64,000 bases of DNA from Dictyostelium discoideum (Eukaryota), in the NCBI GenBank assembly GCA_000004695.1, contig CM000151.3, forward strand, positions 5,824,001-5,888,000, written 5' to 3'. The first letter of the stretch is position 1. The number at the start of each line of letters is the position of its first letter. A model generated the notes under the pieces. The model ran no database searches, had not been told where the DNA came from, and worked only from the letters and a program-made list of their open reading frames with translations. The translations under genes and the position numbers were made by a program. Shown piece by piece: positions 60,722 through 61,645 of this stretch.

Positions 60722-61495
60722 ATGAATTATTTATTTAATATTTTTGAAGAAGAGAAACCAATTAAAAAAGCCCCCATTATAACAGAGGAATGTTATAGAA
60801 ATGGATACCATCCGAGTAAATGGGAATTAGCACAAGTATTATTGAATGGTATTTGGAAACCTTATAAATTCAAAAGTTATATGCAATATAAATCAAGAGA
60901 ACGTTTAAATTTACAAGCAGATACCCAATGTCCAGATGCAATACTATTGGATGACCAAACCAACCAAGAGGTATCATTATATGATTTATTTAATAGTAAT
61001 AATAATGAAAAATCAGTGCAAGATAGACCAATGGTATTAATTTGTGGTAGTTTCACCTGACCCCCATTCCGCGACAAGATGTGTATGTTTCAAGACATCT
61101 TTGTCGATTTTAAAGAGTGGGTTGATATTTATATTGTTTATTTGAAAGAGATACATCCAGCTGATGAATGGTATATTGGTGGTGATGAAATTAGTCTATG
61201 TTATCGTCAACCTAAAACAATGGAAGATAGAAGGGAAATAATCAAAGATTTGAAAGAGTATGCTCCATTTTGTACAATTCCATTCTTAATTGATAAAATG
61301 GATAATAATTTCAATAAAGTTTATGACGCAGTTCCAGAAAGGTTATATGTTTTAGAAGATAAAAAATTCAAATATGTTGGTGGTCCTGGCCCATTTGGTT
61401 TCATACCTGAAGAATTACGTGAATTTTTAACAAAACGTTATAAACCACATTTATTAGATCTTAAAAATAATTTATCAATACCACCATCCCAATAA
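60722..61495 (+). CDS. dio3: Iodothyronine deiodinase-like selenoprotein of about 257 aa. It is a single exon with an in-frame UGA at 61058..61060 read as selenocysteine.
   Basis: ORFs 60722..61060 and 61079..61495 are in the same frame and separated only by TGA. The context VLICGSFT-U-PPFRDKM matches the deiodinase active site FGSCT-U-PPF of vertebrate DIO1-3. The thioredoxin-fold deiodinase core continues downstream (..EWYIGGDEISL..TIPFLIDKMDNNFNKVYDAVPERLYVLEDKKFKYVGGPGP). The gene symbol is from memory of a described Dictyostelium deiodinase selenoprotein and is tentative. Confidence 0.8.
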
Positions 61496-61509
61496 GTTAA
61501 AAATTTATA

Positions 61510-61549
<40 letters not shown>

Positions 61550-61556
<7 letters not shown>

Positions 61557-61645
61557 TAATGATTGCTTTATTATATAAAATTATCTATAATTAAATTATA
61601 GAATATAATTTAGATGAAAACTCTATTTTTTTTTTTTGATATTTT
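61550..61645 (+). promoter_or_regulatory. Candidate SECIS element in the 3' UTR of the deiodinase gene.
   Basis: This is the only non-homopolymer stretch of the 3' UTR. A 5' AUGA at 61559-62 (tgtaATGAttgc) and a 3' GA-containing quartet partner at 61633-36 (tttaGATGaaaa) flank an apical region rich in A. That region contains the perfect palindrome ctataattaaattatag and an unpaired AAAA. The arrangement is consistent with an AUGA...AA...GA SECIS, but I have not folded it. Confidence 0.45.

Follow-up and report, generated by a model that had tools for sequence, protein, structure and literature searches.

Does a TGA codon in the middle of a gene of Dictyostelium discoideum end the protein, or is it translated? 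The question is raised by a locus near the end of a stretch of 64,000 nucleotides (GenBank assembly GCA_000004695.1, contig CM000151.3, positions 5,824,001 to 5,888,000 of the forward strand; hereafter the window, with positions counted from its first letter), for which an original prediction made from the sequence alone had proposed that the TGA in the active site of a deiodinase-like protein is recoded as selenocysteine (Sec). The present analysis supports this interpretation. Window positions 60722 to 61495 are read as the D. discoideum gene for a deiodinase-like selenoprotein, with the UGA decoded as Sec through a type II Sec insertion sequence (SECIS) in the 3' untranslated region (UTR), at a probability of roughly 96%. 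The prediction had left room for the gene being described already, and it is: gene, Sec codon, SECIS and 75Se labelling, with a band of matching size, were published by Lobanov et al. (2007, Genome Biol 8:R198, PMC2375036) and are not new.

The reading frame and the deiodinase domain

As had been noticed from the track of open reading frames (ORFs), the gene is split at the TGA and continues beyond it in the same frame. The upstream ORF runs from ATG 60722 to TGA 61058-61060 and the downstream ORF from ATG 61079 to TAA 61493-61495, while the 18 nt between them (CCC CCA TTC CGC GAC AAG) contain no stop, keep the frame and code for PPFRDK. The TGA is the sole interruption in a frame of 774 nt, and read-through yields 257 residues with the sequence ...RPMVLICGSFT-[TGA]-PPFRDKMCMF... 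around it. The two features in question are:

60722 to 61495, plus strand: coding sequence of the deiodinase-like selenoprotein in a single exon, 774 nt, corresponding to 257 residues and TAA with the internal TGA read through
61058 to 61060, plus strand: Sec codon TGA, residue 113, with C as the next base (UGA-C context), placed by alignment with Dio3 and Dio2 and by conservation in five species

With Cys placed at the TGA position for protein searches, the joined translation matches the Pfam profile PF00837 T4_deiodinase with 124.7 bits (gathering cut-off 27, E 4.7e-36), residues 82-238 covering positions 82-235 of 237 without a break at the TGA. The comparison with a deiodinase profile that the original prediction had called for therefore confirms the uninterrupted protein of 257 residues which it had expected upon read-through. 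It had also counted a downstream ORF unrelated to the C-terminal half of deiodinases among the signs of a pseudogene; that ORF, taken alone, matches positions 115-235 of the same profile. The N-terminal ORF alone has no Pfam match, because its family-specific part comprises only about 30 residues.

The closest solved structures are the catalytic domain of the type III deiodinase (4tr3/4tr4, mouse Dio3, E 8.7e-25) and the type II enzyme (9h48, Dio2, E 9.5e-24). Codon 113 coincides in the alignments with the catalytic position of both (GSCT-[U/C]-PPF), which is occupied by Cys in the crystallised chains, and the stop is thereby located exactly where vertebrate deiodinases carry Sec, as the motif GSFT-U-PPF had indicated. 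Further motifs attributed to the deiodinase active site, E.HP.D.W with its His and Glu, aP.C with a conserved Cys, ERLYV and GG.GP, are kept in the structure alignments, the pairs in the comparison with Dio3/Dio2 being KEIHPADEW/EEAHPSDGW, APFC/APGC, an identical ERLYV and GGPGP/GGRGP.

With vertebrate DIO1, DIO2 and DIO3 the Dictyostelium protein has in common a homologous catalytic domain with Sec at the same place of GS.T-U-PPF, the motifs E.HP.D.W, P.C, ERLYV and GG.GP, and a Sec derived from UGA with a SECIS in the 3' UTR. It differs in a Phe instead of Cys two residues ahead of Sec, in an extremely AT-rich SECIS that the Rfam models miss, and at the N-terminus. Whereas the vertebrate enzymes possess a single-pass N-terminal anchor, a trait of these enzymes and not a criterion of the Pfam family, no hydrophobic segment is present in the first 90 residues of the Dictyostelium protein (maximal Kyte-Doolittle mean over 19 residues 0.08), of which the first approximately 81 fall outside the T4_deiodinase profile. 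As a hydrophobic N-terminal segment is missing, the protein is probably not membrane-anchored, and the product is predicted to be a thioredoxin-fold enzyme of 257 residues that is probably soluble.

A type II SECIS in an AT-rich 3' UTR

Downstream of the stop codon, 19 nt of mixed A/T (61496-61514) are followed by a run of 39 A (61515-61553) and then by an island that is not homopolymeric. The original prediction had called the 3' UTR pure poly-A apart from this island, which is too strong a wording for a sequence that is A-rich and begins with mixed A/T, while its coordinates and layout stand; its view that the island at 61550-61645 is compatible with a SECIS is borne out by a type II SECIS that is conserved, with compensatory changes, in five species. 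The core of the element extends from 61555 to 61618 and helix I out to about 61634. With a GC content of 11%, the element begins 59 nt past the TAA and about 500 nt past the UGA, a distance well above the minimal functional UGA-SECIS spacing of 51-111 nt (SECISearch3 paper). Its parts, and the signal beyond it, are as follows:

61515 to 61553, plus strand: A run of 39 nt, whose 3' part provides the 5' strand of helix I and pairs with the T run in free and constrained folds
61555 to 61562, plus strand: UGUA (61555-61558, a Dictyostelium-specific motif), then AUGA (61559-61562, the 5' side of the non-Watson-Crick core), invariant in all five species
61564 to 61576, plus strand: 5' strand of helix II with U61564, G61565 (read as bulged), C61566-U61567, U61568-U61569 (U.U mismatches) and AUUAUAU (61570-61576), from the fold and pair counts
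61577 to 61580, plus strand: AAAA, the unpaired adenosines of the apical bulge of a type II SECIS, from the fold; AAA invariant in all five species
61584 to 61602, plus strand: mini-stem of 8 bp (61584-61591 with 61595-61602) with loop UAA, from the fold and covariation
61603 to 61618, plus strand: 3' strand of helix II with AUAUAAU (61603-61609), UU (61610-61611), AG (61612-61613) and A61614, then U61615, G61616-A61617 and A61618; GAUGAA invariant in all five species
61625 to 61637, plus strand: 3' strand of helix I, A61625 and a T run of 12 nt (61626-61637), from the fold; T run in all five species
61669 to 61682, plus strand: three overlapping AATAAA hexamers, a predicted polyadenylation signal judging from the position downstream of the SECIS

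AATAAA also directly follows the SECIS of D. purpureum. The internal run of 39 A would cause mispriming by oligo-dT and hence complementary DNA ends upstream of the SECIS.

Folding of the region had been proposed as a check, with the lack of a stable SECIS-like stem-loop in the 3' UTR to be taken as a sign of a pseudogene. The unconstrained minimum free energy (MFE) fold of 61545-61650 is already SECIS-shaped and leaves AAAA at 61577-61580 unpaired. In this fold, helix I joins 61545-61554 with 61625-61634 (the A run with the T run), UGUA-AUGA and GAUGAAAACUC lie in an internal loop, and helix II consists of C61566-G61613, U61567-A61612, the U.U mismatches 61568.61611 and 61569.61610 and seven pairs of 61570-61576 with 61603-61609. 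The apex is formed by a 5' bulge that opens with the AAAA, the mini-stem and its UAA loop. GAUGA is located at 61613-61617, and in the constrained fold AUGA at 61559-61562 and G61616-A61617 face each other at the foot of helix II, the 5' strand of which, 13 nt long (61564-61576), is within the type II norm of about 9-14 positions. We infer G61561.A61617 and A61562.G61616 as the core, with U61560/A61618 and U61563.U61615 on its flanks, U61564-A61614 as the next pair and G61565 bulged. When the core is held unpaired, the same architecture is obtained in all five species (ViennaRNA).

With eukaryotic type II SECIS elements (Rfam SECIS_1 and relatives, SECISearch definition) the element shares the place in the 3' UTR, the order AUGA...AA(A)...GA, helix I, the internal loop and the core, a helix II of about 12-13 positions, the adenosine bulge and the extra mini-stem. 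It departs from them in its low GC content, in a helix I built from genomic A and T runs, in the length of the mini-stem (8 bp) and in the lineage-specific UGUA. The UGUA and the long mini-stem are known from the organism: all D. discoideum SECIS elements are of type II with UGUA ahead of the core and an unpaired AAA, and in that of the deiodinase-like (DI) gene two U-U mismatches lie at a distance from the core and the mini-stem is 'extremely long' (PMC2375036). Every feature of this description is present at 61555-61618, namely UGUA, AAAA, U61568.U61611 with U61569.U61610 and the 8-bp mini-stem, and the apical palindrome which the original prediction had singled out as unusual is this very mini-stem.

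The orthologous loci of D. purpureum, D. firmibasis, D. citrinum and D. dimigraforme were compared with that of D. discoideum. A SECIS is found in each of the five species, 42-70 nt past the respective stop codon and flanked by A-rich and T-rich runs, and aligns with a mean column identity of 87%, whereas the surrounding UTRs differ in sequence and length. Invariant throughout are UGUAAUGAUU, AAA, the base of the mini-stem and GAUGAA. Under the SECIS structure 91% of the cells pair in standard fashion (helix II 87%, mini-stem 93%), compared with 41-63% after a shift of the partners by 1-3 columns. Compensatory changes are seen at three pairs, one in upper helix II (U-A to C-G in D. firmibasis, columns 32/66) and two among the six pairs scored in the mini-stem (A-U to U-A in D. 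purpureum; A-U, C-G and U-A at the top pair). Both U.U mismatches of the D. discoideum group are replaced in D. purpureum by U-A and A-U, and the pairing register is therefore fixed.

A covariance model derived from the alignment finds this element as its sole site in the 64-kb window (79 bits, a score that is high by construction), with 21 bits for the next best. The best blastn match of the D. purpureum SECIS in the window is 61555-61576, the 5' half of the element; blastn-short comparisons of whole 3' UTRs are dominated by homopolymer matches.

Several observations weigh against a functional SECIS or against the structure as drawn here. The thermodynamic signal is weak, with z = -1.3 against shuffles; the fold energy is unremarkable because nearest-neighbour models score nothing for the G.A/A.G core. 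The SECIS fold is less stable, by about 3 kcal/mol, than an alternative one in D. citrinum and D. dimigraforme, and RNAalifold favours a small competing hairpin that sequesters UGUAAUGA. Right beside the core, the bulged G61565 and U61563.U61615 are our own reading, from which the published drawing may differ, and the covariation derives from five sequences only, four of them closely related. The published 75Se band was assigned by size only (PMC2375036). At the level of detection, the loose pattern TGTAATGA..AAA..TGA is not above chance, with 3 matches in the window against 1.06 expected and at least as many in 14 of 100 shuffles, and Rfam cmscan of 61400-61800 (401 nt) gave no SECIS match even at E<=10, but solely a chance bacterial small RNA at E 9.9.

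The competing hairpin joins UGUAAUGA with UUAUUAUA (61555-61575, alignment columns 13-33); it can form in all five species and appears in the free MFE fold of three of them. In the RNAalifold fold of the five-species alignment the mini-stem is recovered, while helix II is replaced by this hairpin. The fold was rejected as the functional one because it leaves unexplained the paired change in columns 32/66 and the changes from U.U to Watson-Crick pairs in D. purpureum; the UGUAAUGA hairpin may reflect the AT-richness of the sequence or represent a conformer that competes with the SECIS fold.

The two other matches of the loose pattern, 25902-25970 on the plus strand and 43823-43891 on the minus strand, are regarded as chance, with at most about 17 bits under the structure model: the former overlaps a 17.3-bit match (25914-25960), the latter none of those listed. 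The element at 61555-61618 stands out from chance by where it lies, by how it pairs and by being conserved in the four other species.

The SECIS models of Rfam are built mostly from GC-richer elements. Across the 64-kb window none of the Rfam families attains its gathering score, and the Rfam miss at this locus is a failure of detection rather than absence of the structural feature; generic SECIS covariance models appear to be blind to Dictyostelium elements with 11% GC. This agrees with the SECISearch3 tests, in which Infernal performed poorly on D. purpureum: the test set included four SECIS elements of this species, and in the Seblastian test only one of its selenoproteins counted as correctly predicted at an Infernal score of 15 (SECISearch3 paper). 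The five-species alignment could seed a clade-specific model with better detection in AT-rich amoebozoan genomes.

These failures of generic detection are also what could be cited for the explanation that survives best among the alternatives, namely that the UGA is read through without Sec, by a near-cognate tRNA for Trp, Cys or Arg, with the downstream hairpin being incidental. UGA-C is a leaky stop context, and such read-through would account for a loose SECIS pattern at chance level and the absent Rfam match. It is nevertheless very unlikely. An incidental hairpin would not be expected to retain 87% identity and compensatory changes amid otherwise differing 3' UTRs, nor to display the full D. 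discoideum SECIS signature, and the homologous animal enzymes have Sec at the same position. In addition, 75Se labelling of D. discoideum has revealed four bands with the sizes of SPS, MSP, DI and Sep15 (PMC2375036), one of them thus of the size expected for the deiodinase-like protein.

Decoding as Sec is consequently preferred, whereby UGA 61058-61060 would be decoded owing to the type II SECIS at 61555-61618, extended by the helix I of A run and U run. By analogy with the family, the SECIS would recruit the SBP2/eEFSec/Sec-tRNA machinery that delivers Sec-tRNA to the UGA. The published 75Se labelling is consistent with SBP2 binding and Sec insertion by this SECIS.

Conservation of the TGA and the public gene models

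If the TGA were a true stop, an intron or an error, its fate in related genomes should tell. The coding sequence occupies the following positions in the compared loci:

124 to 894: D. purpureum (L001)
2501 to 3274: D. discoideum, assembly GCA_054883475.1 (L002)
2501 to 3274: D. firmibasis (L004)
2138 to 2911: D. citrinum (L005)
2141 to 2911: D. dimigraforme (L006)

All five species, D. discoideum, D. firmibasis, D. citrinum, D. dimigraforme and D. purpureum, have the TGA in one and the same column of the alignment, and within D. discoideum it recurs in independent assemblies and in contigs from read sets (L002, L003). The ratio of non-synonymous to synonymous divergence (dN/dS, Nei-Gojobori) is 0.13-0.24 upstream and 0.06-0.14 downstream of the TGA, which indicates purifying selection on both halves, with the downstream half constrained at least as strongly as the upstream half, while the synonymous divergence dS reaches about 1.9 in the comparison with D. 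purpureum. A TGA that is retained through a dS of about 1.9 ahead of a constrained downstream half cannot be explained by a pseudogene, by a nonsense mutation of one strain, by an error of sequencing or by two genes unrelated to each other.

The public gene models have nevertheless taken the TGA for something else, and are wrong in at least six assemblies. The models for D. purpureum (DICPUDRAFT_43625, 228 aa) and D. firmibasis (KAK5577524.1, 230 aa) lose the active site to a fictitious in-frame intron, which spans 28 codons in the former and 27 in the latter. Were these models right, the TGA would reside inside a short intron and would never be translated. That is scarcely credible: the skipped segment, VLICGSFT-U-PPFRDKM, is the best-conserved part of the family, its removal deletes the active site, and it is in frame, coding-like in composition and near-identical at the protein level in the five species.

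In the assemblies of D. discoideum, D. cf. discoideum, D. citrinum and D. dimigraforme, on the other hand, the gene is split at the TGA into two 'hypothetical proteins'. The N-terminal half-ORF is an exact match to the D. discoideum 'hypothetical protein' KAM9945749.1, and the C-terminal half corresponds to KAM9945750.1, which is called two residues shorter. According to such two-gene models, found in GCA_054883475.1 and related assemblies of 2025 (D. discoideum, D. citrinum, D. dimigraforme), an N-terminal protein of 112 aa would be followed by a separate deiodinase-domain protein of 136-138 aa starting at ATG 61079 or 61085. We give this possibility next to no weight, as the 18-nt gap is in frame and its PPFRDK is the invariant second half of the active-site motif, the Pfam profile is unbroken over the junction and the C-terminal protein alone would be devoid of the catalytic residue.

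A pseudogene, strain-specific nonsense mutation or sequencing error, by which the protein would end at 112 aa with a dead remainder, finds an echo in gene callers that halt at the TGA and in the 112-aa 'hypothetical protein' of the NCBI assemblies, but has hardly any probability left with the TGA recurring in independent D. discoideum sequences and four other species, the low dN/dS of the downstream half and a conserved SECIS beyond; the pseudogene or misassembly that the original prediction had kept as its alternative is ruled out on this conservation and purifying selection, and none of the three signs named for it is seen, as far as they are open to test here.

An initial homology search of a protein collection returned two proteins only, because Sec-containing D. 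discoideum entries are absent from the collection or split. The practical value of the locus lies in the correction of its annotation and in its use as a control, a true UGA recoding that can be recognised from raw sequence.

The window from 58222 to 63560 is 99.4% identical to GCA_054883475.1, with 19 mismatches and 6 gaps over 5.3 kb, among other differences with a 3'-UTR A run that is one A shorter in that assembly. As identity is not complete, the window stems from a different D. discoideum strain or assembly.

Identity of the gene, its possible role and its neighbours

Five selenoproteins have been described in D. discoideum, SPS2, SelK, Sep15, MSP and a homologue of the thyroid-hormone deiodinase (Lobanov et al., 2007, PMC2375036). 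The locus is the DI gene of that study, with which it shares the organism and, point by point, the SECIS, and from which nothing substantive sets it apart; DI is the only deiodinase homologue in that selenoproteome. The gene is didA/dio3 (DDB_G0275741), an identification based on the organism, on the single copy of this family and on the match with the published SECIS; the name didA was given in a study in which null mutants displayed normal DIF-1 dechlorinase activity (Velazquez et al., 2011, PMC3205185). A developmental phenotype of dio3 is announced in the title of Singh et al. (2014, Dev Biol 396:256), as cited in PMC6592521.

Thyroid hormones have no known occurrence in amoebae (PMC2375036). 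As in vertebrate deiodinases, the selenolate of GSFT-U-PPF would act as the nucleophile on a carbon-halogen bond in a reductive dehalogenation, and the enzyme would be regenerated via a conserved Cys and a thiol cofactor, as the family relationship suggests. The deiodinase homologue was once a candidate for DIF-1 dechlorination, a reaction carried out by DrcA, likewise a reductive dehalogenase of D. discoideum; DrcA, however, is a GST-family enzyme, not a selenoprotein (PMC3205185). Since didA null mutants retain normal DIF dechlorinase activity, didA is not the DIF-1 dechlorinase. A speculative and rather improbable extension would be that the natural substrate is an endogenous halogenated, probably chlorinated, metabolite other than DIF-1, which would make the enzyme a Sec-dependent developmental dechlorinase, and that the long mini-stem and the helix I of A run and U run are lineage-specific adaptations to a genome of approximately 80% AT.

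With respect to the surroundings, a gene for an RRM-domain protein on the minus strand lies downstream of the selenoprotein gene and convergent with it (window 61770-62800; L001 1197-2225; L002 3562-4583), and this convergent arrangement is common to D. purpureum, D. citrinum and D. dimigraforme. In the relatives, a tgr-like gene with TIG/Ig_TgrO1 domains lies on the upstream side. On the minus strand of the window, an ORF with a long Asn-rich tract, in which runs of N are mixed with I and K, is located at 58219-58617 and represents low-complexity coding sequence typical of Dictyostelium.

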